This document shows, piece after piece, positions 6,219 through 62,833 of a DNA stretch of 64,000 nt. The notes under the pieces are model-generated. The model saw nothing but the letters and a program-made list of their open reading frames with translations, did not search any database and was not told where the DNA came from. The position numbers and the translations under genes are program-made. The stretch is from Blastocatellia bacterium. Its GTDB lineage: Bacteria > Acidobacteriota > Blastocatellia > UBA7656. The DNA lies in the NCBI GenBank assembly GCA_963728545.1, contig CAVSKO010000002.1:2924477-2988476 (forward strand). Direction: 5' to 3'. Numbering within the stretch: the first letter of the stretch is position 1; each line of letters opens with the position of its first letter.

Positions 6219-9146
6219 TCAGTTTATATTCAAGATAAAGGCTGCGGAAGACTCTCCGTTCGAGTTGACAATTTTCAGTGTGTGCTCGCCTCCTGAAAAT
6301 GTTATGCGCTTTACGACGAACGTACCGTTCTTGAAGCTGACGTCAAGGTCTCTCCCGTCAATGCGAAGCCGGGCTGCCGCATCAACCTTTTCTGCGTAAA
6401 CGGTCAGCTTCTTCTTTTTCTTTTTGTACACGACATCGATTATGCGCGGGGCATTTTCAGGATCGCTCACTTTTATTTGCAGAGTCGCCGTAGCGGTCTG
6501 AGAGTCCTGGTCTCGAACGGTAATGCTCGCGCTGAATGTCCCTGAAACGGAAGCGGCCCCGGTTATAGCGCCCGTGGCAGCGCCCAGCGCAAGCCCCGCC
6601 GGTAGACCGCCGCCCGTGACTGCCCAGGCGTAAGGCGCGGTCCCTCCACTGGCATTAAGCTGATAATTGAAAACGGCGCCTTTTACTGCGTCGGCGGGAG
6701 AAGCGATTGCAAGCGAGAGCGGCACCGGCACTACGATTATCGAGAGCGCCTTTCTTGAGGAGCGTAGCTCGATGTCGGTCACGTTGACTGTAAAGACGAA
6801 GCTTCCAATCGCCGTGGGATTTCCGGAGATTGCTCCGGTGTCGGAGTTGATTCCGAGTCCGGCGGGCAGCGCGCCTGCGACAATGCTCCAGGTGTAAGGC
6901 GGCTTCCCGCCCGTCGCCACGAGTTGTTGCGTGTACGCGGCCCCTTTCACGACAGACGGCAGCGATGATGTCACCAGATCGAGCGGAGCAATCACGTTTA
7001 TAGTTATCGTTTTTTGTGCGGCGCGAGACAGCGAGTCAGTGGCCTGCACCGTCATCGAGTAACTGCCCGCAGACGCGGGCGCGCCCGACACCAGACCTGT
7101 TCCGGAATTCAAAGTGAGTCCCGGCGGAAGCGATCCGCTTGCGAGCGACCAGGTATAAGGCGGTGCGCCTCCGGTCGCACTCAACTGGTAATTGAAAGCT
7201 GCGCCCTTGACACCCCCCAGCGTCGCCGAGCCGCTTATCGCGGGCGTGCCAACATCGGAAACGTTGATGGCGACGTTAGCCGACATCTGGCCGAAGAACC
7301 CCACGCCTTCCTGAAACGGTTGCCATTGGAAATTGTATGTGCCCGGCGTCTGAGGAGCGGTAGCCGTAAAAGTGGCTTCAAGATGTTGCCCCGGAGCTAC
7401 GCTGGAGCTTATGAGCGGAACACGGTCTGCTCCCCACGTCGTGTTGTTAGGCGGATTCTGCGAGCCTAACCTGAACCCGCCCGCGCCGTCCCACGCTTGC
7501 GCGCCGGTGTTGAGCCATTTCAACGTCACGCTGAACAACTGACCCGTTTGCAGAGTGGTCGGCACGGTTTGAGAGACGAACTGCGAATCGAAATTCGGCG
7601 TGGAACTTGGCCCTACGGTGAGAGTGAGAGCTTTGTCTGCCGTATCTCCGTTGCCGTCCCTGACGCGCACGGTGAAGGTTGCGGTTCCGTTCTCCAGCGG
7701 TGTGCCCGCGACGATGCCGCTCGATGTGACAGTCACTCCTTGAGGCGGGCGGCCCAACTCAGGGCGCAGGCTCCAGATGTAAGGCATCGAGCCGCCGCGC
7801 GCCGCCAGCACTTGAACGTAAAGCAGGTTGGGCGTGGCATTGGGCAAGGTCGAGGCGGTTGTGACCTCAAGCGGGCGCGTGCCTCCGTTTTCCACCGGGT
7901 AGACGTAAGCGATGCCGTTCGCGTCGTCCGCGCGTATGGAAGCGCAACGACCGTCGAAATGCGCCGTGCCAAACATCGTGGCGTCGATGTATTGCGAATG
8001 GCCCAATCCGAGCGCGTGGCCTAGTTCGTGCGTGGCGACCTCGCGAGTCTTACAATGATCGCTGAAGCTACAGGCGGAGTAAGGGTTGAAAGAGACAAAG
8101 CCGCGTATAGCTTTATAAAAAATTGTCCCGTTGATGTTCTTGCTCTGAGCGGTAGTCCAGTCAAGCCCGCCCAGAGCTATGATGCCGGCGCAGCCGGGAT
8201 CCGGCACAAAACTGTTGTCGCAGTTGTTAAAGACTATGGCGTTTATCCCGCCGTTGTGACTCGTGCAGGTATTCGTCGCGCCTCCGTTGACCACGCGCAG
8301 CGCGCAGCCTGAGACGCTCGACCATACGTTCATCGCGGCAGTGATGTCTTCGGCTATCTCGGCATTAGGCGCGTTTTCGGGGTTTACAAAAAAGACTACG
8401 GGCTGATTGTCATCAGGCTCGAACCACCGGGCAGGATTTGATGGGGGAAGCAGCGTGAACCTGGGAAAAATCTTCCCCCGCGCGGCTTCGCGTTTATATT
8501 CCGGCGGCTCGGCGCGCAGAGGCGTGTCGCTGTAATAAGTCTGTTCGTGCGTTTGCGAGCGCCCCCAGTTAGCCGCAAGCCTCGACCGCACCATAGCGGT
8601 GTAGGCCGATAACTCCATACGATTCGTAATTGTGCCGCGCGTGTGACCGGCTGCCGACAGGGCTTGAGTGCTATTATTGTTTACCGAGCCAAGGTCGCGG
8701 ATGGCGTATTTGTTTCCGGTCTGAGGGTTGACGGTTATTGAGAATTTACCGAGCATCAACTGGTGGACGCGGAGGCTCCCATCCGGCCAGGTCCCTAAAT
8801 AGAGGAGCACCTGTTCGCCGGTCTTGAAGTCAGGCGTGCCGAAGATGATGCTTCCGCGCTCGCCCACCTGGCCGCCCGCCTGCTTGAGGACGATGCGGCG
8901 CTCGTCGACCTGGCCTTTGAGAACTTCTTGAACGCGAACGGTGATGTAAGTAAAGATGCGGCCTTGCTCGTCCAGGCGGCTTCCGACAGAGAGGACTTTA
9001 CCTGTTATGATTGCGCGAGCGCCGACTATTAAATCGTCGTCGTCGGGTAATATATAAGTAGTCGAAGAGGCAGACCCGGCGCAGCCCAGAATAACGGCTA
9101 TCAGCACAAGCGATTTGAGGACAATGCTCTTACAGGAACGTTTCAT
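6219..9146 (-). CDS. Secreted zinc metalloprotease (metzincin motif) with repeated putative Ig (He_PIG-like) domains
   Basis: Signal peptide, then HELGHALGLGHS (HEXXHXXGXXH). The C-terminal half carries at least three repeats of the type GAAFNYQLSATGGAPPYTWSLASGSLPPGLTLNSGTGLVSG. A KKKKKK run sits near the C-terminus. Confidence 0.7.
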   Translation of the reverse strand: MKRSCKSIVLKSLVLIAVILGCAGSASSTTYILPDDDDLIVGARAIITGKVLSVGSRLDEQGRIFTYITVRVQEVLKGQVDERRIVLKQAGGQVGERGSIIFGTPDFKTGEQVLLYLGTWPDGSLRVHQLMLGKFSITVNPQTGNKYAIRDLGSVNNNSTQALSAAGHTRGTITNRMELSAYTAMVRSRLAANWGRSQTHEQTYYSDTPLRAEPPEYKREAARGKIFPRFTLLPPSNPARWFEPDDNQPVVFFVNPENAPNAEIAEDITAAMNVWSSVSGCALRVVNGGATNTCTSHNGGINAIVFNNCDNSFVPDPGCAGIIALGGLDWTTAQSKNINGTIFYKAIRGFVSFNPYSACSFSDHCKTREVATHELGHALGLGHSQYIDATMFGTAHFDGRCASIRADDANGIAYVYPVENGGTRPLEVTTASTLPNATPNLLYVQVLAARGGSMPYIWSLRPELGRPPQGVTVTSSGIVAGTPLENGTATFTVRVRDGNGDTADKALTLTVGPSSTPNFDSQFVSQTVPTTLQTGQLFSVTLKWLNTGAQAWDGAGGFRLGSQNPPNNTTWGADRVPLISSSVAPGQHLEATFTATAPQTPGTYNFQWQPFQEGVGFFGQMSANVAINVSDVGTPAISGSATLGGVKGAAFNYQLSATGGAPPYTWSLASGSLPPGLTLNSGTGLVSGAPASAGSYSMTVQATDSLSRAAQKTITINVIAPLDLVTSSLPSVVKGAAYTQQLVATGGKPPYTWSIVAGALPAGLGINSDTGAISGNPTAIGSFVFTVNVTDIELRSSRKALSIIVVPVPLSLAIASPADAVKGAVFNYQLNASGGTAPYAWAVTGGGLPAGLALGAATGAITGAASVSGTFSASITVRDQDSQTATATLQIKVSDPENAPRIIDVVYKKKKKKLTVYAEKVDAAARLRIDGRDLDVSFKNGTFVVKRITFSGGEHTLKIVNSNGESSAAFILNIN

Positions 9147-9381: not shown

Positions 9382-9648
9382 ATGGCAAATCACAAGTCCG
9401 CAGAAAAACGAGTGCGGCAGAACGAGCGTCGTAACGAAATCAATCGCCGTAACCGCAGCCGCTTGCGCACACAGATCAAAAAGCTCCGCGCCGCAATCGA
9501 CCTGGGTGATGTAGCAGAGGCAAAGACGCTGCTTACCGAAACCGTTTCGGTCATCGATAAGTCTATTCAAAAAGGTGTGCTTCACCAAAACGCCGCTGCC
9601 CGCTACAAATCGAGATTGACCGCAAGCGTCAACGGGATGTCGGCCTAA
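9382..9648 (+). CDS. rpsT: 30S ribosomal protein S20
   Basis: MANHKSAEKRVRQNERRNEINRRNRSRLRTQIKK... is the classic S20 N-terminus. The protein is 88 aa. Confidence 0.9.
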   Translation: MANHKSAEKRVRQNERRNEINRRNRSRLRTQIKKLRAAIDLGDVAEAKTLLTETVSVIDKSIQKGVLHQNAAARYKSRLTASVNGMSA

Positions 9649-9696
9649 CCGGTCGCCCGACCGCGCGATCTAAACTTAAATTATCGATCAAAACAA

Positions 9697-9731
9697 AAAG
9701 AGAACGGCTGCCGGAGCCGTTCTCTTTTTAC
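9697..9731. terminator. Rho-independent terminator between convergent rpsT and the encapsulin gene, possibly bidirectional
   Basis: A-rich lead, then the stem agagaacggcTGCCggagccgttctct, followed by TTTTT. It sits 50 nt after the rpsT stop and just beyond the encapsulin stop on the other strand. Confidence 0.6.
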
Positions 9732-9751: not shown

Positions 9752-10627
9752 TTACTTTCGCCGTCTCGTAGTCTTCGTATCGTCCGTGCCCGGCTCAAGC
9801 GTGCAGATAGAGCCGTGTCGCTTGATTCTCAGGTAGACCGATTCAAAGACGCGGAACGGATGATTCATGTGCTCTGCGCCCAGGTAGGCTACCGTTAGAT
9901 CCTGGGCTACGGCCAGGTCGAAGTTCTGCGAGCCGGTCGCAACGACCATACCGTACCCGTCTTTAATCAGAGGCGATTGATAAACGCCGTCGGTGATGAG
10001 CTGGCGGATGTGCTCTATTTCAAGCACTCCCGTGCCGGGATGGACCTGGTGCATCTGCGTATAGAGCGTCGGGCTTACGACCATCGCATAAGGCCCATAA
10101 AATCCCGCCTGCACGAGCGTCTGCGTAGCGTCTACGGTGTCTTGAAACGCATTGCCCGGCTCGGTCCAGTCGCGGCGCGTCAGCACGTGGCGGCCTTCGA
10201 CAACCATCAACCCTTCGTACCCCATCTCGGCGCTGCCGTTGAATATCAGGTCGTCTTCGGCGTCGGCGCAAAAAGCGGCCGCGCCCGCCGCCGCCGAAGT
10301 GTCGAGCGGCGTGCCGCTCTGCCGCGCAGTTTCGATGTCTCGCCAGTGGAGAACGAAGTCTTTGTAGATCAGCGGAATAATTCCGCTCTCCCGCCGCACG
10401 GAGCGGACGGGGTCGGACTCCTCCTCGCCGAGCAATCCTATGCGGCCAATCGTAGTGCCGGAGAAATGATCGTGAACGATAGTCTGTATGCCCGGGCCGA
10501 GCGGGCCGTGAAGGTCTACGATGCGGCGGCCTACCAGGCGCTTGCGCGCAACGTCTATCACTACCTGATTTAGATTTTCCCACTCTTGATCGTTTAGCGG
10601 GTTTTCTTCGTGAGCAAAGATGGGCAT
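9752..10627 (-). CDS. encA: Family 1 encapsulin nanocompartment shell protein (EncA/linocin-M18-like, HK97 fold)
   Basis: The N-terminus MPIFAHEENPLNDQEWENLNQVVIDVARKRLVGRRIVDLHGPLGPGIQT matches M. xanthus EncA (MPDFLGHAENPLREEEWARLNETVIQVARRSLVGRRILDIYGPLGAGVQT). The match continues through IPLIYKDFVLHWRDIE, GVLEIEHIRQLITDGVYQS, MNHPFRVFE and ICTLE. The track ORF begins at a TTG at 10637-10639. The ATG at 10625-10627 (MPIF…) is preceded by GGAGGAGAGG and aligns with the EncA N-terminus, so I take it as the start. Confidence 0.85.
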   Translation of the reverse strand: MPIFAHEENPLNDQEWENLNQVVIDVARKRLVGRRIVDLHGPLGPGIQTIVHDHFSGTTIGRIGLLGEEESDPVRSVRRESGIIPLIYKDFVLHWRDIETARQSGTPLDTSAAAGAAAFCADAEDDLIFNGSAEMGYEGLMVVEGRHVLTRRDWTEPGNAFQDTVDATQTLVQAGFYGPYAMVVSPTLYTQMHQVHPGTGVLEIEHIRQLITDGVYQSPLIKDGYGMVVATGSQNFDLAVAQDLTVAYLGAEHMNHPFRVFESVYLRIKRHGSICTLEPGTDDTKTTRRRK

Positions 10628-10640
10628 CCTCTCCTCCAAT

Positions 10641-11711
10641 CTAAAATTCGAATATACTCCAGCGCGCGCTTTCGGGCAAAGTCAATTCGGCCACGAGATA
10701 TTGTATCTGGAGGCGTGGCGTCGCCTCCGAATTCTTTATCGCGTTGTCTACCTGGGCAATGCGGCGAAGCCCGTGAACTATCTCTTCGCGCCCGCTGCGG
10801 CTGACGCGGGCATTAAAATCGGCGGCGTTTCTGCCGTAGCGGCCCGTAGCGCGGTTGACTTCGTCGGCTTCCGCTCCGCGCGCCATCAAATCCTTTGCGG
10901 CCAACAACCGCCGGTACAGCCCCGCCAACGCGCCAAGTATCATTAACGGATCGTTGCCGTCGTCCAACAACCTTTCCGTGAGCCGGAGGGCGCGCTTGCG
11001 ATTACGCTCAAGGATGGCGTCCCACAACTCCCAGGTCGTGTGCTCGCGCGCGCGCGGCACAAGCTCTTCGACTACGGCAGAGTTGATAAATCCGCCGCCC
11101 GCGTACGAGGCGAGTTTATCCAGTTCGTTTGCCAGCCTCGAAAGACGCGTGCCTACAAGCCCTATCAAAAGACCGAGCGCCGCCGGTTCTATGCGGCAGT
11201 CACGCAGCTTCAAATAGCCTTCGGCCCATCGCGCCGCCTGCTGATCCGAGAGGCGATCAAAAGCGACTACGGTGCAGGCTTTCAAAAGCGCGGTCGAAAG
11301 CTTTCGCCGCTGGTCGAGCGAGACTGTTTGGAAGACGACCGTCGAGGAGGGCGCGGGCCGCTTCAGGTATTCAAGCACCATCTCGGTTTCGCCTTCTTTA
11401 ATCTTGTCGAAATCCTTTATGACAATTATACGGCGCGAGGTTGAAAGCGTCATCTCGTTGGCCGTGTCTATGGCGTCCGCCGCCGTAGTCTTCGCCCCCG
11501 AAGGATGGCTTTCGCCGATGGTAAAAGTGAAGATGTTGAACGCGCGCTCGGCTTCGTCAACGGTGTTATAGAGCAGCCTGAGCGCGCGCTCCCCCAGGTA
11601 TTGCTCTTCGCCCGCAAACAGGTAGAGCGCGTCTATGCGGCGTTCTTTGATCTGGCGGCGAAAATCTTCGTAAGTGATACCGTCGAGCTTTTTTTTGGGT
11701 CGCCTGCTCAC
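10641..11711 (-). CDS. holA: DNA polymerase III subunit delta
   Basis: The protein is 356 aa. ALYLFAGEEQYLGERAL… is a HolA-like N-terminal region. It lies directly downstream of lptE, a conserved lptE-holA arrangement. A GTG start overlaps the lptE stop by 4 nt. Confidence 0.75.
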   Translation of the reverse strand: MSRRPKKKLDGITYEDFRRQIKERRIDALYLFAGEEQYLGERALRLLYNTVDEAERAFNIFTFTIGESHPSGAKTTAADAIDTANEMTLSTSRRIIVIKDFDKIKEGETEMVLEYLKRPAPSSTVVFQTVSLDQRRKLSTALLKACTVVAFDRLSDQQAARWAEGYLKLRDCRIEPAALGLLIGLVGTRLSRLANELDKLASYAGGGFINSAVVEELVPRAREHTTWELWDAILERNRKRALRLTERLLDDGNDPLMILGALAGLYRRLLAAKDLMARGAEADEVNRATGRYGRNAADFNARVSRSGREEIVHGLRRIAQVDNAIKNSEATPRLQIQYLVAELTLPESARWSIFEF

Positions 11712-12229
11712 AGCCCTTCCATTATGGTTGAAATGACGGTCTGCGCGAACTCGCGCGCTATGCGGTCGACAGCCGGGTTCTCTTCGTTGAAAAACGATTC
11801 AGGGTCATCCGAAAGCTGATACTCGCCTTCAAACACCATTCGCGGGTTGTTAAAAAGTATCTTATGCGTGCGGTTATCCCTCACCGTCACGCTCACGATG
11901 ATGCGGACGTCCCAAACCCTGGTGCGCCCCTGCGAGTCGAGGATCGTGCCGACGGCGCGAAAGCTCCTGATGTCGCCGTTGAGCGTGACGTCAGCCGCTT
12001 CGGGGTCGGTGGTCACGCGCAAGCCGCGCGCGCGCTTTAGTATCTCTTCCGCGACCGCCTGTGTGAAACGCTGCTCGACGCGATACTTCAGGCTTGAGTT
12101 TTGAAAGATAGGCACCGCAATCGTCTTGACGTCGGCGGGCAGGCTCTTGCCTTTGCCCGCGGGCTTGTAGCCGCACACGTCCAGCACGAGCGAGAGAACG
12201 ACCGCGATGACTGCTGCTTTAATCATCAA
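11708..12229 (-). CDS. lptE: LPS-assembly lipoprotein LptE
   Basis: Lipoprotein signal (…VLDVCGYKP), 173 aa, and the conserved position upstream of holA. Confidence 0.65.
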   Translation of the reverse strand: MMIKAAVIAVVLSLVLDVCGYKPAGKGKSLPADVKTIAVPIFQNSSLKYRVEQRFTQAVAEEILKRARGLRVTTDPEAADVTLNGDIRSFRAVGTILDSQGRTRVWDVRIIVSVTVRDNRTHKILFNNPRMVFEGEYQLSDDPESFFNEENPAVDRIAREFAQTVISTIMEGL

Positions 12230-12354: not shown

Positions 12355-13920
12355 ATGAGTTTGCACACGGGCGATAAAGCGTTCATCTCCCCGTTCGGGT
12401 TCAACGACGCGGATAAAGAAGAAAAGATTCTCCCGCAACTTTACCTGCGCGAGACGGGTTTCAACCGCCAGGCGATCGATCCTTTAGTCAGCGTGATAAT
12501 AGGCCGCCGAGGCTCGGGCAAAACGGCGCTCGCTCAATACTTGAAATTCGAACAGGAAGATCGCTATGACGTCTATGTAGACATAGACGAGCCGGACACC
12601 TACAGCCAGATTCTTCTGGAGCTTAGCAAGAAAGTAGACCACAACGCCGCGCTCAACGTCGTTGACGACGTGTCGAAGATGTGGGAGCTTGCTTTCTGGA
12701 CTTCGTTGATGTCCGAAGTGCTTGAGATCAACGGCATAGAATCCGCCGACGACAAAAAGAAGATTCAAAAATACCTGACCAGCGTAAACGTCCGGGCGGG
12801 GCGCGGCACCCAGGTCATTCGCACGGTCTTTAAGGCGCTGGCCGAGTTCGCAGCCGAGCGCGCGGGCGCGGTCGTCGATCTCATATTCAAAGTAAACGAC
12901 ATACTAAAGTCCGTAGAGTTTGAAGAATCAAAAGAGGCGATAAACCGCTACCTCGAACGCGGCCACAAAGCGGTAATAGTCATAGACACGCTCGAACAGT
13001 ATGACGTAAGACGGGCCGAGATGCAGCAGGCGCTGGGTGCGATGCTGCACGCCGTAACTCAATTCGCGCTCGGCAAAGTTCATCACAATATCCAGGTCAA
13101 ATGTTTTCTGCCGGGCGAGATAGTGCCTTACCTGTTGGAGTCCACGATTCAGAATATAGGCAAGACGTTTGAATTTCCCGTCTATCTGCTCTGGCGTCCG
13201 AAAGACCTGCTCAGGCTTGTCTGTTCGCGATATTACTATTTTCTAAAACAGGATTTCCCCGACGTGGCAAAGTCGATCCCGAAGGTGAACTGGGACAGCT
13301 ACTCTGATGTCCGAAACAAGATATGGGACCGCTTCTTCCCGGCAAAGATACGCAACCGGCACGGCAGAGAAGAGGATTCGTTTCAATATATAATTCGCCA
13401 CACGCAGCTCCGGCCCCGCCAGATCATCTGGCTGTGCAACTCGATTGCGCAACTCGCCTATGACCGAAGAGTATTTCCCAAATTCGAAAATGAAGACGTC
13501 GTTCGCGGCGTTCACGGCGTCGAAGAGTTGATAGCGAGCGAAATATTGAACTCTTACAATAAAGTTTATCCGGCTATGCGCCAGATACTGAATTGCTTTC
13601 GCGGCGAGTCGAACGTCTTAGATCGGGCGGCTTACCTGGACAAGCTCGCGCCGCGCACCAGAAAAGCCTGGCCCGAAAGCATGCCCTACGACAGAAGCAC
13701 GCTTTGGCAGATGGTATCGGAAATCGGCTTCCTCGGCTCGGTCGTAGAAAAGACCGACCGCTTTTACGAAGCCCAATTTGAATATACGACGCGCGACCGC
13801 CTCATCTTAAACGAAGACGAAGAGTGCGCCATCCATCCCATTTTTTACAAGCTCTTTGGGATCAAAGCCGTCAAAGAGCGACCCGTTTACCCGGTAGGCC
13901 CGGACAGGTTAGATGATTAG
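12355..13920 (+). CDS. P-loop NTPase of unknown function (Walker A GRRGSGKT; candidate Walker B VIVIDTLEQ)
   Basis: A 521-aa ORF with lower GC and more A/T-ending codons than its neighbours. It is an isolated single gene, divergent from the lptE operon and convergent with a phosphatase gene. I recognise no transporter or ABC signature. Confidence 0.6.
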   Translation: MSLHTGDKAFISPFGFNDADKEEKILPQLYLRETGFNRQAIDPLVSVIIGRRGSGKTALAQYLKFEQEDRYDVYVDIDEPDTYSQILLELSKKVDHNAALNVVDDVSKMWELAFWTSLMSEVLEINGIESADDKKKIQKYLTSVNVRAGRGTQVIRTVFKALAEFAAERAGAVVDLIFKVNDILKSVEFEESKEAINRYLERGHKAVIVIDTLEQYDVRRAEMQQALGAMLHAVTQFALGKVHHNIQVKCFLPGEIVPYLLESTIQNIGKTFEFPVYLLWRPKDLLRLVCSRYYYFLKQDFPDVAKSIPKVNWDSYSDVRNKIWDRFFPAKIRNRHGREEDSFQYIIRHTQLRPRQIIWLCNSIAQLAYDRRVFPKFENEDVVRGVHGVEELIASEILNSYNKVYPAMRQILNCFRGESNVLDRAAYLDKLAPRTRKAWPESMPYDRSTLWQMVSEIGFLGSVVEKTDRFYEAQFEYTTRDRLILNEDEECAIHPIFYKLFGIKAVKERPVYPVGPDRLDD

Positions 13921-26672: not shown

Positions 26673-27146
26673 TCAGCTTAATCGGACGTAGCCCCCGCGA
26701 AAGTAAGCGAGCGGGTGTCCCTCGCTCACGTGTGTCGCCAGAACCTCTCCGATTACTATCGTGTGGTCGCCGCCGGGGTACGAGTGTGTGACGCAGCACT
26801 CTAGAGAAGTAAGGGCTCCGTTTATTAAAGGAGCGCCCGTGTCCCCTTCCCTGTATCCGAGGCCCTCGAAGCGGTCAGGGTCTTTTGAAGCGAAGCGGCG
26901 CGAAACAAGCTCCTGATCTTGGGCCAGTATGTTGACCGCAAAATGGTCCCCCTCGTTGAGATGGTCGTGAAGGGACGCCCTTTTATCTATGCAGATCAAG
27001 ACCAGGGGCGGCTCAAGCGACAGCGACGAAAACGCGCTCACGGTAATGCCGCGCAAGGCGCCATCTTCCGAGCGGCTTGTGACAACAGTCACGCCGCTTG
27101 CGAAATGGCCGAGGGCGCGGCGAAACTCATCCTTGCTGACTGTCAT
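26673..27146 (-). CDS. Flavin reductase (FMN-binding, HpaC-like) family protein
   Basis: MTVSKDEFRRALGHFASGVTVVTS…GITVSAFSSLSLEPPLVLICI. The start ATG is preceded by AGAGGAAG. Confidence 0.7.
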   Translation of the reverse strand: MTVSKDEFRRALGHFASGVTVVTSRSEDGALRGITVSAFSSLSLEPPLVLICIDKRASLHDHLNEGDHFAVNILAQDQELVSRRFASKDPDRFEGLGYREGDTGAPLINGALTSLECCVTHSYPGGDHTIVIGEVLATHVSEGHPLAYFRGGYVRLS

Positions 27147-27232
27147 TGCTTCCTCTTTATGACGCCATTTGTTGAATGAAGGCGGCAAGCTGCGAAGAGA
27201 GAACCCCTCGCAGCTTGCCGATGGTAGCCTGG

Positions 27233-43710: not shown

Positions 43711-46700
43711 TCAATTTGCAGTCTGCTTCACGTTAAACTTTTTCCCGGCTATGGTTATCACCCCGTTTCGCCCCGTCCCTGTCGCATTCGGCTCGACCGT
43801 GTAGGTGATTGCCCCGTTGCCTATGCCGCAGCAATTCGACGTGATCGTGATCCACGGGACATCGCTCGTTGATTGCCACGCGCAACTTGCGCCCGCACTC
43901 ACGTTGATGATGCTCGCGCCTCCCGAGGCTCCAAATACGATGAACGACGGAGAGAGGGTAAAACTGCAAACGGGCGCGTTCTTTCTGTTTTGAGTGATAT
44001 TGAAGGTTTGTCCGGCAACGGTGATAGTCCCTGTGCGAGGTAGCGGATCGAAATTGTCTCTCACAAGGTAGGTCACGGCGTCGGGGCCCATGCCTGTAGC
44101 ATCCGAAGTTATAGTTATCCAGCTCGCGTTACTCGTCGCCGTCCAGCTACAGTTAGAAGGGGCTGTAACTTTGATGCTTCCCTCGCCGCCTGCGCCCGAG
44201 AAAAACTGGCTGGTCGGGAAGATCGGGAACGAAGCGGTACAACAGTTATTCAGCAAGACCGAGACGTTCGTTGAGACGAAATTCGTCACAGCCAGATCGA
44301 GCTTGCCGTCGCCTGAAAGATCGCCGACAGCAATGCCCTGTGGAACAGTCCCGGTGTCGAAACCGGTGGGCGGGCCAAAGCTGCCTGTTCCTGTGCCTGG
44401 AAGTATGGAGACTTTATTCAAGCTTTCAACCGAAACGGCCAGGTCGTTTATGCCGTCACCGTTTACATCTCCGACGGCGACATAGGAGGGATTGGCCCCA
44501 ACAGCAAAATTAGTAGCCGCGCCGAAGCTCCCCACCCCATCGCCTAACAGAACAGATACATTGCTTGAAGTGTAATTCGTCGTTGCCAGATCGCCCTTGC
44601 TGTCATTGTTGAAATCGCCTGTAGCAATACTGATCGGGTTGAACCCTACTATGAAACTGGACAGAGGACCGAAGCTTCCGGTCCCCGTGCCGAGCAGGAT
44701 AGAGACGTTGCTATTATCAAAACTCGATACGGCAAGATCCGCCTTGCCGTCCGAGTTGAAGTCCGCTACGGCGACTCCCGAAGGGCTCGCCCCGACCGCG
44801 ACATTAATCGCAGCCGCGAAGCTCCCGGTCCCCGTGCCGAGCAGGATAGAGACGTTATTTGAGGTGCTATTTACGACCGCAATATCCGCCTCGCCGTCCG
44901 AGTTGAAATCGCCGACCGCAACCGCGAGGGGATTCGTTCCGACGCCGAAATTTGTGGGTGCGCCGAACGTGCCGGTCCCCGTGCCGAGCAGGATAGAGAC
45001 GTTCGCGGAGTCGAAGATCGATACGGCCAGATCGAGATTGTTGTCATTGTTGAAATCGCCGACCGCAACCGCAGTGGGAGAAGACCCGGCTGCGAAATTT
45101 GCCGCAGCCGCGAAGCTTCCGGTCCCCGTGTTCAAGAAAATCGAAACGACCGAAGAGTCGCGGTTAGCAACAGCCAGGTCGAGGGCGCTGTCTGAGTTGA
45201 AGTTCCCCATAGCGACTCTGATCGGACCCGCGACGGCTCCGTAGTTGACGGCTGCGGCAAAGCTCGGCGCGGCGCAGGGACTGGCCTGTGACACGGTTAC
45301 GGTGTAGCTGCGACTCCCTTTGCAGCCGCCGCTATCGGTAGCGGTCACCGTGAAGGTGAAGCTGCCGGGCGCGGTAGGCGTTCCGGCAAGCGCGCCGCCC
45401 GAAGATAGCGTCAAACCCGTCGGCAAACCGCCGACCGACACTGCAAAGTTGTACGGAGGCGTGCCGCCGCTTGCAGTGATCGTCTGGTTATAGGCTGTGC
45501 CGACAGTTCCCGAAGGAAGCGCGAGCGGCGCGAGCGTGATTGAGGGACAGACCTGCAAGCAGGCCGAGAACTCGGAGCTGTTATTGCCGGGGTCCGTCGC
45601 TATGGCTGTAATCAATTGCCCCACAGGGACCGCCGTTGCGAGGGTGGCCTCGATAGCTGCTATCCCGTTGCCGTCGGTCATCACCGTCGTCGAGCCGAGC
45701 GGTGTCGCGCCTTCGCCGTGCATTGAGCTGTCGCACGATGTGTTTGAGAAGAACTCTACGACGAATTGAGTATTAGCCGCGCTGTTGAGAGTCCCCCGTA
45801 CTGTTGTACTGCTGCCGTTGTTAATTGCAGAGGACAAGACGGGGAAGTTCTGCAAGTTGTTCGGCCCCGAATCCGCATCCATCGGGTCGTTCGGCGTAAC
45901 CCCGTCGGCGCCGAGGTTAATGCCCAGGCCGCCGTTTGAATGGATCGAATCGCTGCGAATCAGATTGCCCGTGCCCGTAAGGATTTGAACTCCGCTGTCG
46001 CCATTGAAAGCGATAATGTTGCCCGCGCCGGGCGCGCTGCCGCCGATTGTGTTGTTACTCCCGCTTATTGAAATGCCGTCGCCGCCGTTGCCCAGCGCGC
46101 CTGTGCCCGCAACGTTTGTGCCGACATAGTTGCATTGGATCGTGTTGTTGCCGCTCGTATTAGTCTGGATGCCTCCGCCTCCGAAGCGGTTGATGACAAG
46201 CCCTTGCACGGTGCTGTTGCCCGCGTTTACGACAACCCCGATTGCGCCTGCGCCTGCGTTTGTGCCGTTTAATTCGATGATCGGCGTCGATGTAAATCCA
46301 GGTTGCGTCTTGCCGTCGATTATGACAGGGTCGGTGATCGCAGGCAGCGGCGAAGAGGGCGTGATCGTCTGTGCGCCTGTCCCTATGGAGAAGTTGATTC
46401 TGTTCACGCCCGCAAAGGCATTCGCCTGTTGAAGGGCCGCGCGCAATGTGCAGAAGCCCGTGCCGTCATTACAGGCCATATCGGAGAGGTTGTTGTCGCC
46501 CGCGTCGCCCGTCGAATTAACCACGAACGTGCCCGAAAAATTCTGCTTGCACGCGGAAAACTCGGAAGTGTTGCCCGCAGGGTCTGTCGCCGTCGCGGTG
46601 ACTACGTGACCGGCGGGAACGCTGCCCGCGAACGGAATGATGAATGACACGTTGCCCGTCGCATCGGTCGTGACATTCATCGTGCCTAAGAAGGTCTGCC

Positions 46701-49700
46701 CTTCGCCGTTTCCCGACCCGTCACAGCCCGGCTGTGAGAAGAATTCGAGCCTGAACGTAGTGTTTGCATTGCTGTTGAGGCTGCCCGTGACGGTGACGGT
46801 AGTCGTTAGCGATGAAGTAATAACGGGGAAGTTTTGCAGGGTGTTGGCTCCCAGGTCCGCGTCGCCCGCATCGTTCGGTGTGACGCCGCGCGTCGTCCCA
46901 TCAGGGCTTAAATCGATCCCAAGCCCTGTGTTTGAGAAGATAGAATTTGAAAGAATCCTGACGACTCCACCCGCGCGTACGAACACGCCGTCTTCGCCGT
47001 TGAAGGCTATCACATTGCCCGCACCCGCCGCAGTCCCGCCTATAGTGTTATTGCTCATTGCGGCAACCCCGTTAACGTGAACGCCGTTCATACTGTTAGG
47101 CAGCGGGCTTGCGCCGTCGGCTTTTGTGCCTATGAAATTGCCCTGCACGAGAATTCCTGTGCCACCTGGAAGGAATTCAATGCCGTTCTGGTTGTTGCCC
47201 GATATGACATTTCGGGCCGCAGCCACAGTTCCTCCGATTGTGTTGTTGGGCGCAGTAATGAGAATGCCGTTAATCGTGTTGCCTAGGTCGAGCGTGCCTG
47301 TAACATCCGTCCCTATGAAGTTGCCCTGAATGGCGTTGTTCTGCCCGATACCGACGAGGCCTATGCCTTGTTCATTATTGCCGGATATGAGGTTGCCCGC
47401 GCCCGCCGCAGTCCCTCCGATAGTATTGCCTGGACTGCCGATTATACCGACGCCGCTCCCATTGTTGCCCAGGTCGAGCGTGCCCGTAACGTCCGTCCCT
47501 ATGAAGTTGCCTTGCACGAGATTTCCGGTTGAGGTGCCGCCCATAATCTCTACGCCGTTACGGTTGTTGCCTGAAATTAAATTGCGCGCCGCGACCACAG
47601 TCCCGCCGATTGTGTTATTCGAGCCGGGGTTGATGAACACGCCGTCCATTGAGTTTCCGCGATCCAGGGTTCCTGATGAATCCGTTCCGATGATGTTGCC
47701 CTGAACTTGCGTTCCCGTGCTCGTGATTTCGATGCCGTGCCGCCCGTTGTCAGAGATCAAATTGCCTGCGCCGCCGGTTGTTCCCCCAATCACATTGTTT
47801 TGCGCAGCGACAAGCAGGCCATTATTACCATTGCCAAGTTCATTGATTCCGTTGGCGGCCAGACCAATGATGTTGCCTTGAACGGTATTTCCTGTCGCGC
47901 TTGCCCCGCCGATCTGAATGCCGTGAGAGCCGTTGCCTGAGATCACATTGCGCGCGGCTGCGGTAGTTCCCCCAATCACGTTGCCGGGCGCGTTGTTTAT
48001 ATTGATGCCTGCCGCGCTATTGCCCCGGTCGAGCGTGCCTGTGACATCCGTGCCGATAAGGTTTCCTTGCACCTGCGTTCCGCTACAGTTGCTGGTGATC
48101 ATTATGCCGTTACTTCCATTGGCGCATATGATATTGCGCGCCCCCGCCGTCGTTCCGCCGATAATGGTGTTGGGCGCATTTGTAATATCTATGCCGGAGC
48201 CCGAATTGCCTAAAGCGTTTGCGCCTGTGACATCCGTGCCTATGTAGTTCCCGCGCACAATGCTGCCGGCCCCCGGATTGATAACGATTCCCGAACCGGT
48301 ATTGCCGGAGATTATATTGCGCGCTGCGACAGACAATCCGCCTATGGTAGTGTTGTCGGCTGAGACGAACAGGCCGCCTAAGCCATTGTCTCTGCGTATA
48401 GTGCCCGTCAAATCCGTGCCGATATAATTGCCTTCAATCAACATGTTGCTGCCGAATGCCAGTTGAATCCCCCTTTGACTGAAGCGATTTATCACCAATC
48501 CGCGCACGGCGCTGTTGGCGGCTATTATCAAGAGTCCGTTCACGCCTGCGCCTGCGCCTGCGCCGTTCAGCTCGATAATCGGCTTGCCTGCAAACCCCGG
48601 CTGAGTTGTGCCGTCAATGAGGGTCGTCTCATTGACCGACGGCAGGGCTGAAGTCGGGGCGATTGTCTGCGCTCCTCCCCCTCCTATTTCAAAGGCAATC
48701 GTATTTGCGCCTGCGGTTGCATTGGACTGTTGAATCGCTGCCCGCAGCGTACAATTGCCCGAGCCATCGTTGCAGATTCCGTCGCCCAGGTTGTTGTCAC
48801 CCGCGTCGCCTGTTGAGGTGACGACAAAGAAACCGGTCGCTGAAGTGACTTGAACGCACGAAGAAAACTCGGAAGTGTTGTTTGCGGGATCGGTTGCCGT
48901 AGCGGTGATGAACCGGCCCGAAATGACTGTCGCGAAGGCTGTGAAGTTTATATTTGCATTGCCGCCGCCGTCGGTCAGGATTGTCGTCGAGCCGAAAAGG
49001 GTCTGCCCCTCGCCGTTGTTCGAGCCGTCACAAGCGCTGTTGTAGAAAAACTCTATAGTGAATGTCGTATTAGCCGTACTGTTGAGCGACCCCACGACGG
49101 TTGTGCCCGGCCCCGAAGCGGCCGAAGTCAACACGGGAAAGTTTTGTAGATTATTGGAACCCGTGTCGCCGTCTCCCGAATCGTTCGCCGTCACTCCCGT
49201 CGGCGCAAGGTTAATGCCCGGACCGGCGTTCGAGAAGATCGAATTCCCGCTTATGGAATTCCCTGTGCCGGTATTGACAAAGACCCCTGCGGCTCCGTTG
49301 AATGCTATGAGATTTGCAGCGCCGCTTACGCTCCCGCCGATACTGTTATTGCTTGCGAAACCGAAAATCGAGAAGCCGGTTAGAAAAACTCCGTGCGAGT
49401 TATTTCCGAGCGCAGAAGTCCCGTTCGCCTGTGTGCCGATAAAGTTGCCTTGCACTAAATTCTGATTGCTCGCGAATATCTCGACGCCGCCATGAGTGCT
49501 TGAGGTCGTGTTTCCCGAAATGACGTTGCGCGCGGCGGTCGTCGTGCCGCCTACGGTGTGGCTGTTTCCCTGAAAGAGGAAGACACCCATCTGAGCGTTC
49601 GGGAGGGCCGAGGTCCCTGCGGCGTTCGTGCCAACATAATTGCCCTGGACCAGATGTCCTGTCGCGCTGGTTCCATCTATCCGAATGCCTTCGTCGTTCG

Positions 49701-51732
49701 CAGAAACGACGTTGCGCGCCCCCGCCGTCGTGCCTCCAAGGGTGTTGCCTGACCCGCCATTGATCACCAGTCCGGGGCTAGCCAGCCCGCCTACCCCGGC
49801 GCTGCCCGATGCATTAATGCCTATGTAGTTGCCTCGCACAAAGTTTCCTGTCCCGCTGCCGGAGATCAAAATACCGCGAAGCGAATTCCCTGAAACGATG
49901 TTGCGCGCAGCGGCAGTCGTGCCCCCAATCGTGTTATTTGATCCGTCAACAAAAATGCCGATTGTGTTAGCCGAGGCAGAGTTGCCCGCCGCGTCTACGC
50001 CTGTGTAGTTGCCTTCGATAAAGTTGTTTCCGCCCGATTGCAAGCGTATGCCGCTATCGCCGAAACGATTAATGACAAACCCCTTCACGGTGCTGCTGCC
50101 TGCCGTGATAAAGAATCCATTTACGTTTCCCGCGCCGCTCCCGTCTAACTCGATGAGAGGACTGCCCGCAAAGCCCGTTTGAGTCGTAGCATCAATCGTC
50201 ACCGCGCCTGTGACGATCGGAAGCGCCGAGGAGAGGGAGATCGTTTGCGCCCCCGACCCTATCTGGAAGCTAATCATGTCGGCGCCCGAGTTTGCGTTCG
50301 CATCGAGAATCGCCTGTCTGAGCGACCCCGATCCGCTGTCGCTCGTGTTCGTCACTGCGAACGTAGAGACGGGCGCAGTCTCTGCCACCGAGGGCGCGCT
50401 GTGCCCGGTTCTAAGTATCACCAGGTCGCTCAACGCATCATTGTTTAACCGCATTGGCATCACGGCAACGGGGTCGCCTTCTACGTCAAGAGACGCCGCG
50501 ATTCTCGGCGACGACGCGGGCGCAGACTCATGGCTGCCAATTACGATTTGCAGTTGACGGCTCGCGTTATCGATGACCAGCAGATCATCCGTCGTGCTTG
50601 TCGAAACGTTAGCCCGTAACAGGCGGGCCGACGCAGATAGCCGGTCGGAAATCAACGGCTCGCTCTCCCAAACCTGCTTTTCGGCTCTCCATCTCATCAC
50701 GTGAAGCTCGCCTTCACTTGAGAGCACCGCCGCTTCGAACCTGCTGCTGCCCGTAAATTCGCCGAGCGCGATTGACTCGATGGCGAACGGAAAGTAATGG
50801 CGGCTGACGAGGGGACGAGAAACGTCGCGCCGCGCAGCTTCATTAAGCGACAGTTTCCGGTCGCGCCCGTGAATTATGATCGCCTCAGAACCGGCTCCCA
50901 CAGCCAGATCCATCGGGTAGGCGTCATCCATCTGGCCCATTGCCATCGCGCGGGCCTCGGCAGGCAATTGGATCTCTTCCGGCTCGGCCCTGAGCGCGCC
51001 TTCCGGCCCTTCAAAGACCAGCGCCTTCGGCCCGTCGCCCGCATTGATACTCACGGCAAGGTCAGTCAACCCATCTGCGCGATTGATCTCTCCCGCTACC
51101 ATCACGGTAACACTGCCGCGCAACTGTATGCGCCTCGCAGGCAGAAAGCCGCCGCGCCCATCGCCCGCAAGCAGAAAGAGCGCGTTCGCGCCCGCCTGGG
51201 CGCTCACAACATCCCAGTGTCCGTCTGCGTCGAAATCTCCCGCGCTCAAAAAATCGGGCGGCGCGGGCAGGCTCACCGCTCGCGCATGGGGTAAGAATGC
51301 CGAGTCTATAAATCTCGATTCGGCTTTGCGCTTTTGGGCTTCGGGGCTATTCGGATAGATCGAATCGATATTGCCGCGACAGAGTGTAAGGATTCCGGCG
51401 GCAGCATGCCTGTAACCCGTCACAAGGTCTGGCGCCCCGTCTTCGTCGAAATCAGCGGAAGCGATTGAGAGCGGCGCGGCCTGGTCTTTCTCTAAAGCCT
51501 GCGCCAGGAGGGCGTCGCCTTCGTAGGTCTGTTCAAGCCCGTAACCATCTTGCAAGTTGATGGCGGGGTTGCCCCGGCCCGCCGCTCGCAAAGCCTCGTC
51601 CCTCTTCTGCGATTTGCCCACGGCGAAGTTGAGCGGCGCAAAAGAGAGCGAAATAATTGTATAAGCCAGAACAGTAATCATCGCGCCGAGAAGTATTAGC
51701 GCGCGATGAAGCGAAAGCGGGGATTTACGCAT
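43711..51732 (-). CDS. Giant secreted surface protein (2673 aa) with FG-GAP/VCBS repeats, a right-handed parallel beta-helix repeat array, a He_PIG-like Ig domain, a second FG-GAP block and two C-terminal BACON-like beta domains
   Basis: Signal/TM N-terminus. FG-GAP-type D-x-D-x-DG motifs ([23 protein letters not shown]). Dozens of 25-28-aa [22 protein letters not shown] beta-helix repeats. [28 protein letters not shown] (He_PIG). Six VGDFNxDxxxDLAV FG-GAP units. Two C…SW…S.ASWITITS modules. No stop codon across 8 kb. Confidence 0.8.
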
Positions 51733-57698: not shown

Positions 57699-59403
57699 GA
57701 GACTGCTAAAAAAGTTGGCAAGTCCCGGTCGGCGCAGTATCCTGAAAGCGACTTCTAGCAGAGGAGCGGTTCCCATGCTCAAACCAGACTACTACATCGC
57801 CCCGACCGACATCGATCTCTTGGTCTTTGCTAAACTCATCCCCGCTGATCACTATCTGCGCCAACTCAAAGCCATGATTGATTTCGACTCGCTGCGTCAT
57901 CTGGTCGCCGATTGTTACTCACCCTCGATGGGGCGCAGCGCCCAAGACCCGGTGCGCTTGCTCAAGCTCAACTTCCTCCAATTTCACTATGAGTTGTCGG
58001 ATCGCGAAGTCATCGCTGAGGCTCAGGTCAATGTCGCCTTCCGTTTCTTCCTCGACTTGGCGCTCGATAGCCCATTGCCAACGCCGCCCTTGTTGACCCA
58101 GTTTCGCACCCGCCTTGGCGTCGAGCGATTCCAAAACCTCTTTGATGAGATTCTCCGCCAAGCCCGCCACCTTGGCTTGGTCAAAGATCGCCTGCGCCTC
58201 AAAGACGCCACCCACATCATTGCTAACATTGCCGTGCCCTCGACGATTCGCCTGGTCGCTTCTAGCCGCGAGCGGTTGTTGGCGGCCGCCCAGCCCTTTG
58301 CGCCCGAAGCCGTCGTCGCGCATCAACAGCGCGCCATCGGGATTCGTCAAGCCACCGCCGATCTCAAAGACCAAGCGCGCTTGCTGCAACGCGTCGAGCA
58401 GTTGCGTGAGATCGTCGTCTGGGCCGAGCACTGGGCCGCTCCGCCAGTTGGCGAGCCAGTTGGCGAGCCAGTTGGCGAAGCCACCACCGAGTTGCGCGCG
58501 GCGCTCGACCTGGCCCACAAGATATTGGCTGATCGCCAGCCCCAAGCCCAAGATAAGCTGTTGTCGCTGGTTGACGAGCAAGCGCGCACCGGCAAACACG
58601 GCGAGTATTACAATGGCTATCTGCTGGATGTCAGCCTGGATGCCGACTCGGAGTTGATCTGCGCCATCGAGGTGCTGCCGGCCAATGGCGATGAAGCCAA
58701 GGATGCCCAGCCCTTGATTGAATCTGAAGAAGCGGCGCACGGCAATGACATCAAAAGTTTGTTGATGGACGCGATCGGCTTTCGCGGCGAGGTGTTGCGC
58801 GAGTTGGCGGTCGAGAGCGGGCCACAACTGACCGTGTATGTGCCGTCGTATGAGTGGCCGGGCTCGGTGCCCGGCTTGTTTCAACCGGGAGATTTTCAAC
58901 TCGATGAGCCCGGCGAAGCATTGCAATGTCCGGGTGGGCAAACCAGCCGCAGTCGCACGCGAACAGGACGCGATCAAGGCTGGCAATACTTTTTTCCAGC
59001 CCGCCAATGCCAAGCTTGTCGGTTGCGCACGACTTGCCTGAAAGCGGGAGCGAAAGGAGGACGAACGGTTATCAAGAACGACTACGAAGCGGAATATCAA
59101 GCGGCCAGAGCGCGCGCCACCACGGCAGCCTATCAGGAGGTGAGAAAGCAGCATCCGCGGATTGAGCGGAAGCTGGCCGAGATGATGCGCTGGCATGGCG
59201 GCAGGCGAGTGCGCTATCGCGGGCGATTGCGAGTGAAGATTCAGTATGTGCTGACCGCCGTCGTCGTCAACCTCAAGCGCATGGTCAAGCTGTTGAACCT
59301 GCCACTGAGTCACCAGCCTGCCTGAAGTGCGGGCAGCAGACCGTGCGTGGTGATGATGAGGTGTATCGTGCTTCATTTCAACTCGGACTTTTTTAGCAGT
59401 CTC
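57699..59403 (+). mobile_element. Insertion sequence, IS5/IS1182-superfamily type, 1705 bp with 17-bp perfect terminal inverted repeats and a 5-bp target duplication
   Basis: IRL GAGACTGCTAAAAAAGT (57699-57715). IRR ACTTTTTTAGCAGTCTC (59387-59403). TACAG direct repeats at 57694-57698 and 59404-59408. A single transposase ORF. Confidence 0.8.
57775..59325 (+). CDS. IS5/IS1182-family DDE transposase with an InsH-type N-terminal domain
   Basis: …VRLLKLNFLQFHYELSDREVIAEAQVNVAFRFFLDL…LLTQFRTRLG… is an InsH_N-type domain. C-terminal DDE region. The ATG at 57775 is preceded by GAGGAG. The upstream TTG at 57715 is less likely to be the start. Confidence 0.8.
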   Translation: MLKPDYYIAPTDIDLLVFAKLIPADHYLRQLKAMIDFDSLRHLVADCYSPSMGRSAQDPVRLLKLNFLQFHYELSDREVIAEAQVNVAFRFFLDLALDSPLPTPPLLTQFRTRLGVERFQNLFDEILRQARHLGLVKDRLRLKDATHIIANIAVPSTIRLVASSRERLLAAAQPFAPEAVVAHQQRAIGIRQATADLKDQARLLQRVEQLREIVVWAEHWAAPPVGEPVGEPVGEATTELRAALDLAHKILADRQPQAQDKLLSLVDEQARTGKHGEYYNGYLLDVSLDADSELICAIEVLPANGDEAKDAQPLIESEEAAHGNDIKSLLMDAIGFRGEVLRELAVESGPQLTVYVPSYEWPGSVPGLFQPGDFQLDEPGEALQCPGGQTSRSRTRTGRDQGWQYFFPARQCQACRLRTTCLKAGAKGGRTVIKNDYEAEYQAARARATTAAYQEVRKQHPRIERKLAEMMRWHGGRRVRYRGRLRVKIQYVLTAVVVNLKRMVKLLNLPLSHQPA

Positions 59404-62266: not shown

Positions 62267-62833
62267 ATGAGCCGAAACGATCTCACAAAGCGCAATCCCT
62301 GTATAGGGTTTATAGAATCAAGCTCGATTGCACGCGGCATAGAAGCAACGGACGCCATGCTGAAGATGGCCGAAGTCGAGCTGTTAATGACGGTGATCAT
62401 CCCTCGCGGCAAATACCTGATAATGATCGGCGGCGCGGTCGCGGACGTGGAATCGGCTCTGAGAGCCGGTCTGGCGTCGGCAGGCGAGACGGTGCTCGAT
62501 CATTTCATCATTCAAAACGCCCACCCGGAGCTTCCCGACGCGATCAAGGGCCGCGTGAAGGTTGACCACATAGAGGCAATCGGGATCATCGAGACTAAAG
62601 AGGTGGCTCCGGCCATTTACGCGGGCGACGCTGCGGTTAAATCGGCCAACATAACCTTGATCGAAGCGCGCAACCAGCCGGGAGGAAAAGGGCTGGTCGT
62701 GTTGACGGGCGAGGTCGGGGCCGTGCGAACAGCCGTCGCGGCGGGCGTCGCTTCGATTAAAAAGGACGGCATGTTAATCGCGCAAATAGTCATTCCTTAC
62801 GCTCACCCCGAACTCAGAAAAAGCTTGATGTGA
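62267..62833 (+). CDS. Bacterial microcompartment shell protein with two tandem BMC domains (BMC-T/PduT-like)
   Basis: Domain 1 is LGFIESSSIARGIEATDAMLKMAEVELL…IIPRGKYLIMIGGAVADVESALRAGLASAG…IIQNAHPELPDAI. Domain 2 is IGIIETKEVAPAIYAGDAAVKSANITLIEARNQPGGKGLVVLTGEVGAVRTAVAAGVASIKKDGMLIAQIVIPYAHPELRKSL. Both match the PF00936 consensus (…IETxGxxAAIEAADAMVKAANV…GLVTVIVRGDVGAVKAAV…VIPRPH…). An SD AAAGGA precedes the ATG. Confidence 0.8.
   Translation: MSRNDLTKRNPCIGFIESSSIARGIEATDAMLKMAEVELLMTVIIPRGKYLIMIGGAVADVESALRAGLASAGETVLDHFIIQNAHPELPDAIKGRVKVDHIEAIGIIETKEVAPAIYAGDAAVKSANITLIEARNQPGGKGLVVLTGEVGAVRTAVAAGVASIKKDGMLIAQIVIPYAHPELRKSLM

Follow-up and report, generated by a model that had tools for sequence, protein, structure and literature searches.

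Shell genes of family 1 encapsulins typically, though not universally, have a cargo gene beside them (PMC8346489). The closest described relative of the system reported here is that of Myxococcus xanthus, in which iron is mineralised by ferroxidases of the EncB/C type, the targeting peptide is contacted by residues D39, D214 and Y217 of the shell protein EncA, and encD (MXAN_2410) lies far from encA (MXAN_3556), homologues of EncD being almost confined to Myxococcaceae (PMC11126975). The next closest shells after EncA belong to the iron-storage encapsulins of Firmicutes (Quasibacillus thermotolerans IMEF and Bacillus methanolicus; PDB 6nj8 and 9fy6), in which the IMEF cargo is encoded next to the shell, often with a ferredoxin that carries an N-terminal TVGSL motif (PMC8346489). 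A minority of 90 among 2,383 family 1 systems could not be assigned to a cargo operon type and lies in diverse neighbourhoods across phyla (Andreas & Giessen, 2021, PMC8346489). Here we analyse a 64,000-nucleotide stretch of DNA from a Blastocatellia bacterium (contig CAVSKO010000002.1, positions 2,924,477 to 2,988,476; hereafter the window), which contains an EncA-type encapsulin shell gene directly behind the housekeeping genes lptE and holA. This lptE-holA-encapsulin arrangement is conserved across the class Blastocatellia and is not peculiar to one genome.

An EncA-type shell gene behind lptE and holA

The window gene encodes an EncA-type family 1 encapsulin shell protein. In hidden Markov model (HMM) searches it matched the Pfam family Linocin_M18 (PF04454) with E=7.4e-72 and the NCBIfam equivalog encap_f1 (NF041155, 'family 1 encapsulin nanocompartment shell protein') with 286.6 bits, the cutoff of the latter being 100. 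Residues 4-279 align to residues 5-280 of M. xanthus EncA without a gap over all 276 residues (E=3e-103, ~60% identity). An AlphaFold model calculated from 34 homologues (predicted local distance difference test, pLDDT, 81.2; predicted template modelling score, pTM, 0.76) has the same fold: compared with the PDB using Foldseek, its best matches were EncA structures, with template modelling (TM) scores of 0.83-0.86. The top 29 PDB matches (TM 0.78-0.86) were EncA, related large iron-storage encapsulins or engineered cages derived from them. The Firmicutes iron-storage shells (E=1e-84 to 1e-86; TM 0.83-0.85) resemble the window shell and fall with it into one subgroup, the large mineralising shells (T=3/T=4); small T=1 DyP/Flp shells scored far below the large iron-storage shells. 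A preliminary description of this DNA had called the protein an HK97-fold, EncA-like family 1 encapsulin and had suggested a Linocin_M18 search and a structure prediction; both analyses bear out that identification.

The open reading frame (ORF) that ends at 9752 on the reverse strand covers 9752-10639 when started at a TTG codon and 9752-10627 when started at an ATG. All 29 of the 29 aligned homologues share the N-terminus MP/MA-IFAHEENPL. The ATG (10625-10627), and not the TTG (10637-10639), is therefore the start, as had been proposed. The gap-free alignment pairs the three peptide-contacting residues of EncA with D38, D213 and Y216 of the window shell, and these columns are invariant or nearly so across the clade. 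Because these residues are kept, the window shell appears to be built to load proteins with a peptide of the LTVGSLR type. Given its ~60% identity to the M. xanthus shell, which forms T=3/T=1 particles, the protein most likely self-assembles into an icosahedral nanocompartment with the HK97 fold. The alignment also revealed a Lys/Arg-rich C-terminal tail on the Blastocatellia shells, which is found on cargo-linked Myxococcota shells as well.

The named database proteins closest to the window shell (66-92% identity) all come from Blastocatellia, a class of Acidobacteriota, and NCBI already names its homologues as family 1 encapsulins. Its own 90% cluster, with 165 members, is the most abundant shell cluster. 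A look-up of the TTG-started version of the window protein gave no identical record. Within the window, the G+C content at third codon positions (GC3) of the encapsulin gene is similar to that of the neighbouring genes.

Related loci were gathered through exact-protein look-ups and through a scan of metagenomes, which contributed 80 loci, and each locus (numbered with the prefix L) was scored with the window holA, lptE and rpsT, a leuS and two cargo queries. Where the encapsulin was at least 67% identical and the upstream sequence usable, 34 of 35 loci had holA as the immediate upstream neighbour in the same orientation. In these holA-linked loci lptE precedes holA, and rpsT usually lies downstream in convergent orientation. 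None of the loci with an encapsulin at least 67% identical contained an EncFtn-like gene within ±10 kb; at 45-58% encapsulin identity (Myxococcota and others), an EncB-like (EncFtn-like) gene adjoins the shell gene in 38 of 47 loci. The Myxococcaceae relatives have an EncB-like gene directly upstream of the shell gene, murJ in divergent orientation and a sigma-54 activator gene downstream, whereas the window has holA upstream and no adjacent cargo. The sole exception to the linkage with holA is L094 (10001-10843), where a 75%-identical shell gene, also without an adjacent cargo gene, stands on its own, with an HD-domain or Zn-ribbon gene on one side and flgD-flgE on the other.

The encapsulin gene is consistently the best conserved of the cluster when lineages are compared. 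Between the window and L001, the encapsulins are 92% identical, against 82% for the ribosomal protein S20, 76% for LptE and 66% for the holA product. This difference in conservation points to strong purifying selection on the shell.

Predicted transcription signals around the shell gene

At the junction, the holA stop codon TAG (10643-10641) and the encapsulin ATG (10627-10625) enclose 13 nucleotides (nt) with a strong Shine-Dalgarno sequence, and lptE overlaps the start of holA by the 4 nt GTGA. The junction and the ORF coordinates thus agree with the preliminary description. Its further proposal, that the three genes form one transcription unit, had been drawn from the spacing only, and a conserved promoter-like element points instead to a separate promoter of the encapsulin gene. 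Such a promoter had been named among the outcomes that would speak against the proposal; here it is predicted from sequence.

This element was flagged by a consensus scan on the reverse strand, in the C-terminal tail of holA, and consists of TTGCCC (10679-10674) and TATATT (10656-10651), separated by 17 nt (N17). Of the 27 loci scanned, 19 have identical hexamers with identical spacing in the corresponding position. A search of 155 loci found the TTGCCC-N17-TATATT pattern in 22 of them, a single time in each. The block containing it, GAATTGACTTTGCCCGAAAGCGCNCGCTGGRGTATATT, is almost invariant across loci, though the holA proteins are only 41-89% identical. At the codon level, identity at third positions reaches 0.80 in holA codons 342-354, the highest value of all 13-codon intervals in 21 non-redundant holA genes (median 0.575; 95th percentile 0.67). 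The last 13 residues of the holA product, TLPESARWSIFEF, extend past the canonical delta domain, with the matches to TIGR01128 and PF21694 both ending at residue 343. In an exhaustive search of delta representatives, most others ended 2-6 residues past the '..EL' motif, and the tail TLPESARW occurred only on a few close relatives.

Among relatives, holA and the encapsulin gene lie 13 to 283 nt apart, yet the distance of the promoter-like element from the holA stop codon does not change. A GGAGG-type site always lies 6-9 nt before the encapsulin ATG. This variation in spacer length argues against translational coupling between holA and the encapsulin gene. The longer spacers hold lineage-specific hairpins made of short tandem repeats; the 13-nt spacer of the window has no hairpin. 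Long imperfect hairpins of this kind were seen in L076, L078, L082-L084, L087, L003, L105, L107 and L154, and also in L094 (9840-9975), their arms being runs of one repeat that is specific to the lineage (GATTTTG, GATTGCG, GTGATGC, GTCATTT or GACGTCG). They are elements like repetitive extragenic palindromes (REP) or stem-loops of a 5' untranslated region (UTR). An Rfam search of the region returned nothing above noise.

The consensus scan also found TTGACA-N18-TATCCT upstream of rpsT, and the organism therefore appears to use promoters of the sigma-70 type. Taken together, the sequences suggest that a sigma-70-type promoter of the encapsulin gene has probably become part of holA, within the codons of a C-terminal extension. 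Transcription would then be predicted to begin at about the stop codon of holA, with the variable spacer serving as the 5' UTR. The conserved element makes a single obligatory lptE-holA-encapsulin transcript doubtful. Read-through from lptE-holA is possible, since the scan found no terminator-like structure at the holA-encapsulin junction of the window.

The encapsulin gene and convergent rpsT have between them a hairpin with flanking A/T runs (Table 1), a 16-bp stem followed by a U-run, which is probably a bidirectional intrinsic terminator. The preliminary description had also placed a bidirectional terminator here (9697-9731); the hairpin is absent from the list returned by the consensus terminator scan of the window.

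Upstream, the window departs from a widespread gene order. In Escherichia coli and other Gram-negative bacteria, leuS-lptE-holA is a conserved housekeeping cluster. The window retains its co-oriented, overlapping lptE-holA pair; it differs in that the encapsulin gene is appended past holA and leuS is displaced. In L001, L005, L076, L085, L089 and L092, leuS lies upstream of lptE, either directly or with intervening genes. Its position in relatives such as L001 and L005 is occupied in the window by a gene divergent from lptE (12355-13920, plus strand), which encodes a P-loop ATPase of the Sll1717 family (NF047389, 214 bits; weak match to an anti-phage model). As the leuS-lptE linkage is broken, the 125-nt intergenic region must supply a separate promoter for lptE; no site in it met the criteria of the promoter scan.

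Table 1. Features of the lptE-holA-encapsulin region, in window coordinates.
Feature	Position	Strand	Details
lptE (lipopolysaccharide-assembly lipoprotein)	11708-12229	-	PF04390
holA (DNA polymerase III delta subunit)	10641-11711	-	356 residues; TIGR01128, 212 bits
Conserved block in the holA C-terminal tail	10651-10688	-	GAATTGACTTTGCCCGAAAGCGCGCGCTGGAGTATATT; putative sigma-70-like promoter
holA-encapsulin spacer	10628-10640	-	ATTGGAGGAGAGG; 13 nt
Shine-Dalgarno sequence within the spacer	10637-10628	-	GGAGGAGAGG; GGAGG type
Encapsulin shell gene, family 1 (EncA-type)	9752-10627	-	291 residues, ATG start; HMM, alignment, model
Hairpin with flanking A/T runs	9694-9730	.	16-bp stem, 5-nt loop; -23.8 kcal/mol, z=-2.9
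rpsT	9382-9648	+	convergent with the encapsulin gene

Search for cargo genes near and far from the shell gene

No cargo gene was detected near the window shell gene. Searches with EncB-like proteins (tblastn) found no EncFtn-like ORF in any of the six frames of the 64-kb window, and a motif scan found no C-terminal targeting motif of the [FL]TVGSL type in any frame. As a control, the EncB homologues of two Myxococcaceae loci did yield the motif in the same scan, with the C-termini FTVGSLRRRR and FTVGPLKRRGG. The window has 54 candidate ORFs; Pfam annotation, obtained for 52 of them, revealed kinases, peptidases, transporters, regulators, a transposase and similar proteins, and no ferritin-like, DyP, hemerythrin, IMEF or phage genes among them. 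The motif scan was likewise empty for ORFs with a targeting peptide in 325 kb of Blastocatellia sequence flanking shell orthologues. These results uphold the earlier statement that the shell gene, with convergent rpsT downstream, has no cargo gene nearby; an adjacent cargo-like ORF with a targeting peptide that could have been overlooked was searched for in the window, and none was found.

Two candidates were rejected. A flavin reductase gene ~16 kb from the shell gene (26673-27188, minus strand; 171 residues, PF01613, E=3e-46) was considered as an EncD-like cargo and dismissed, its product having no targeting peptide. Near the encapsulin gene of L003, a DyP_N gene was dismissed because it is not conserved in the other loci and carries no targeting-peptide motif. 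This gene (12767-14257 of L003, minus strand) encodes a 496-residue DyP_N-domain protein, lies beside a P450 gene at ~2 kb from the encapsulin gene and was seen in this one relative only.

Searches were extended beyond the shell loci with profiles of EncB homologues. With a full-length profile, no Blastocatellia-named protein appeared in the list of 8,000 candidates, in which all named matches were from Myxococcota; we suspect that the Pro/Ala-rich linker filled this list. A profile of the helical core only retrieved a tight clade of EncFtn-like proteins of 100-105 residues, with the conserved sequence MDETEDDLLLVRDVLARELETINSY...DEEKEHVAEALEIIK...GFTVGSLRKK, whose C-terminus is a canonical targeting peptide of the EncA type. 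Two members are proteins of Blastocatellia metagenome-assembled genomes (MAGs), namely P0301 (MEN3331787.1) and P0383 (HKP11333.1). The best PDB match of the clade was M. xanthus EncB (E=6.6e-13), followed by EncC, with which it shares the TVGSLR ending. The Blastocatellia cargo differs from that of M. xanthus in being shorter (~104 residues) and in standing alone at another locus. A more distant EncFtn relative, P0319, lies in a conventional shell-cargo operon of another taxon and was set aside as not relevant to the Blastocatellia shells.

In all six contigs examined, two of them from one metagenome assembly, the cargo gene stands alone in the same context, between genes for an aldose epimerase and a DUF4230 protein on one side and a Zn_peptidase (PF04228) on the other. 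In the five longer contigs the context extends to genes for LarN, UxaC and a Tricorn-like protease, and a chemotaxis cluster is close by. This gene context is not present in the window. The chemotaxis cluster, observed in L010, L012, L073, L156 and L157, comprises genes for a methyl-accepting chemotaxis protein (MCP), CheW and CheR, and for CheA where the sequence reaches that far.

The cargo is linked to holA-adjacent shells by composition: the tetranucleotide frequencies of the cargo loci correlate with those of the holA-encapsulin loci L107 and L003 (r=0.96-0.98) as well as, or slightly better than, chunks of one genome do with each other (0.94-0.97). Two of these loci, L107 and the cargo locus L010, are large contigs from one metagenome. 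A separate, conserved cargo locus is thus established for one sister lineage of the Blastocatellia. The preliminary description had held that the cargo must be encoded elsewhere; this is supported only in the sister lineage, by the stand-alone GFTVGSLRKK gene, and for the window's own lineage no such gene was detected. In the window's lineage the cargo could be another protein or one too diverged for these searches to recover, or it could be lacking altogether.

Several other features of the window were noted. A lone protein of 188 residues with two BMC domains (62267-62833, plus strand; PF00936, E=1e-41), and thus a tandem-BMC microcompartment shell protein, is encoded at the window edge, next to a cyclophilin gene on the opposite strand; it lies ~52 kb from the encapsulin gene and represents an unrelated type of compartment. 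Just beyond rpsT, a secreted-looking protein of 975 residues (6219-9146, minus strand) combines an M10 metallopeptidase domain with four He_PIG Ig-like repeats. The window further contains an ORF of 2,673 residues (43711-51732, minus strand) and, as part of an insertion sequence, a DDE transposase gene (57715-59325, plus strand; PF13751, PF05598, PF01609).

Probable origin, function and meaning of the arrangement

The reading that we favour, and consider reasonably probable, is that of an EncA-type shell with an iron-storage role, expressed mainly from its own sigma-70-type promoter and linked to holA by position. In the Blastocatellia, the shell gene would have become separated from the ferritin-like cargo gene that adjoins it in Myxococcota, moved to the 3' end of the housekeeping lptE-holA pair and been fixed there, ahead of a terminator shared with convergent rpsT. 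Its expression would come mainly from the promoter within the 13-codon extension of holA, to which read-through from lptE-holA may add. With a promoter of its own, the linkage of the shell gene to replication and envelope genes would be positional, not functional. Once assembled, the EncA-like shell would load proteins carrying a peptide of the LTVGSLR type, and its ancestral role would be the mineralisation of iron by EncB/C-type ferroxidases, as in M. xanthus (PMC11126975). Iron sequestration and protection from oxidative stress are the likely role of the encapsulin; at least one Blastocatellia lineage with the same gene arrangement encodes a matching EncB/C-like ferroxidase cargo.

Several observations weigh against this reading. 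On the side of the promoter, the exact hexamers and spacing are missing in 8 of the 27 loci (L005, L089, L090, L092, L093, L095, L108 and L154), the -35 hexamer TTGCCC matches only 4 of 6 positions, and the statistical support for the conservation of holA codons 342-354 (Mann-Whitney p=2.7e-5) is uncorrected for phylogeny. The conservation of the tail could also owe something to an RNA element, or to a peptide function at the C-terminus of delta. On the side of the cargo, all five cargo loci compared match only the L003/L107 lineage, their tetranucleotide correlation being 0.91 with the window and 0.89-0.91 with L001, and the window genome may therefore use another cargo or none. The cargo clade counts ~45 member sequences against ~440 for the shell clade, and a scan of 185,579 species genomes placed the cargo in one Blastocatellia genome, plus 60 Myxococcota. 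By the NCBI accession ranges of cluster members, no pair of shell and cargo in one MAG was found; the accessions HKP11333 and HKQ04960 are too far apart for a single MAG.

Were lptE, holA and the encapsulin gene an obligatory tricistronic operon, with a sole promoter upstream of lptE, the shell would be coupled to envelope biogenesis and replication. The co-orientation of the three genes, the 4-nt overlap and the 13-nt gap all fit such an operon, as do the lack of a terminator-like hairpin at the holA-encapsulin junction of the window, where the first hairpin terminator comes past the encapsulin gene, and the retention of the linkage in 34 of 35 loci. We nevertheless regard it as unlikely. The conserved sigma-70-like element lies directly upstream of the encapsulin gene, inside holA, and a spacer so variable in length, and in many cases carrying long hairpins, does not resemble the junction of a tightly coupled operon. 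The stoichiometries of the products also differ greatly, since delta is needed in few copies per cell and 60-180 shell subunits are needed per particle. L094 keeps its shell gene away from holA, and the broken leuS-lptE linkage in the window indicates that the cluster is positionally plastic. It is possible, if rather doubtful, that the shell is a true orphan in the window's lineage, its EncB/C-type cargo having been lost or never there, and that it either holds a different, unrecognised cargo or acts without any, for example as a Dps-like particle that binds and protects DNA. No EncFtn-type cargo could be assigned to this lineage, although its shell cluster is the most abundant one; purifying selection on the shell is strong, and its neighbour is a replication gene. 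In vitro, and with no need for cargo, the EncA of M. xanthus binds plasmid DNA, condenses it and protects it (PMC9321382), and the Blastocatellia shells have a Lys/Arg-rich tail. However, a shell that loads nothing would not readily account for the full conservation of the residues binding the targeting peptide, and the apparent absence of cargo comes from database searches, not from the window genome itself. DNA binding by EncA is an in vitro result, the basic tail is also present on cargo-linked Myxococcota shells, and the adjacency of holA looks positional given the separate promoter signal.

A more radical proposal, which we hold to be very unlikely, is that the window's lineage, an abundant one in soil, has no ferritin-like cargo at all and that its highly conserved shell, which bears a basic tail on the exterior, works without cargo, or with a new one, in a role such as Dps-like DNA protection or one tied to replication or the envelope. 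If true, a role of the latter kind would explain why the shell gene has been retained class-wide at lptE-holA. The HK97 fold, common to encapsulins and phage capsids, and weak sub-threshold Pfam matches to Major_capside and DUF6260 would suit a relic capsid gene of a degraded HK97-type prophage. Such an origin is effectively refuted by an NCBIfam equivalog score almost three times the cutoff, by ~60% identity over the full length to a characterised encapsulin and by a chromosomal position conserved across a bacterial class, with GC3 like that of the neighbours; moreover, among the annotated ORFs of the window no portal, terminase, protease, tail or integrase gene lies near the encapsulin ORF, and the related loci contain only cellular genes.

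An EncA-type shell with a positional linkage to holA, as we favour it, is a variation on a known encapsulin system and does not overturn the current understanding of encapsulins. The novelty of the cargo-less arrangement had been overstated in the preliminary description, as both the distant encD of M. xanthus (PMC11126975) and the 90 unassigned family 1 systems (PMC8346489) have already been described. The latter resemble the window locus in combining a classical shell gene and a non-canonical context with no recognisable neighbouring cargo. They differ in the diversity of their neighbourhoods, whereas the Blastocatellia have one housekeeping context throughout the class and, in a sister lineage, a plausible distant cargo. 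The Firmicutes systems have their IMEF cargo adjacent, and often the ferredoxin, for which the window has no counterpart (PMC8346489). The accessible portion of the supplementary files of Andreas & Giessen (2021, PMC8346489) contains no Acidobacteria entry, and a literature search returned no paper linking encapsulins with holA and none on a family 1 encapsulin cargo in Acidobacteria. What appears to be new is the class-wide fixation of the shell gene behind lptE-holA, the predicted promoter inside the holA tail, and the separate conserved cargo locus in one lineage, together with the observation that the most abundant lineage apparently lacks this cargo.

The function of an encapsulin is normally deduced from the adjoining cargo gene, and a class whose cargo is distant or missing is invisible to that approach. 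The Blastocatellia therefore offer a natural test case for the co-regulation of a shell and a distant cargo, and raise the question of whether an EncA-type shell is run without ferritin-like cargo in some lineages. A promoter apparently absorbed into the coding tail of holA would be a small evolutionary curiosity. As Blastocatellia are abundant in soils and the shell cluster of the window counts 165 members, the arrangement may also have a bearing on the handling of iron in soil.

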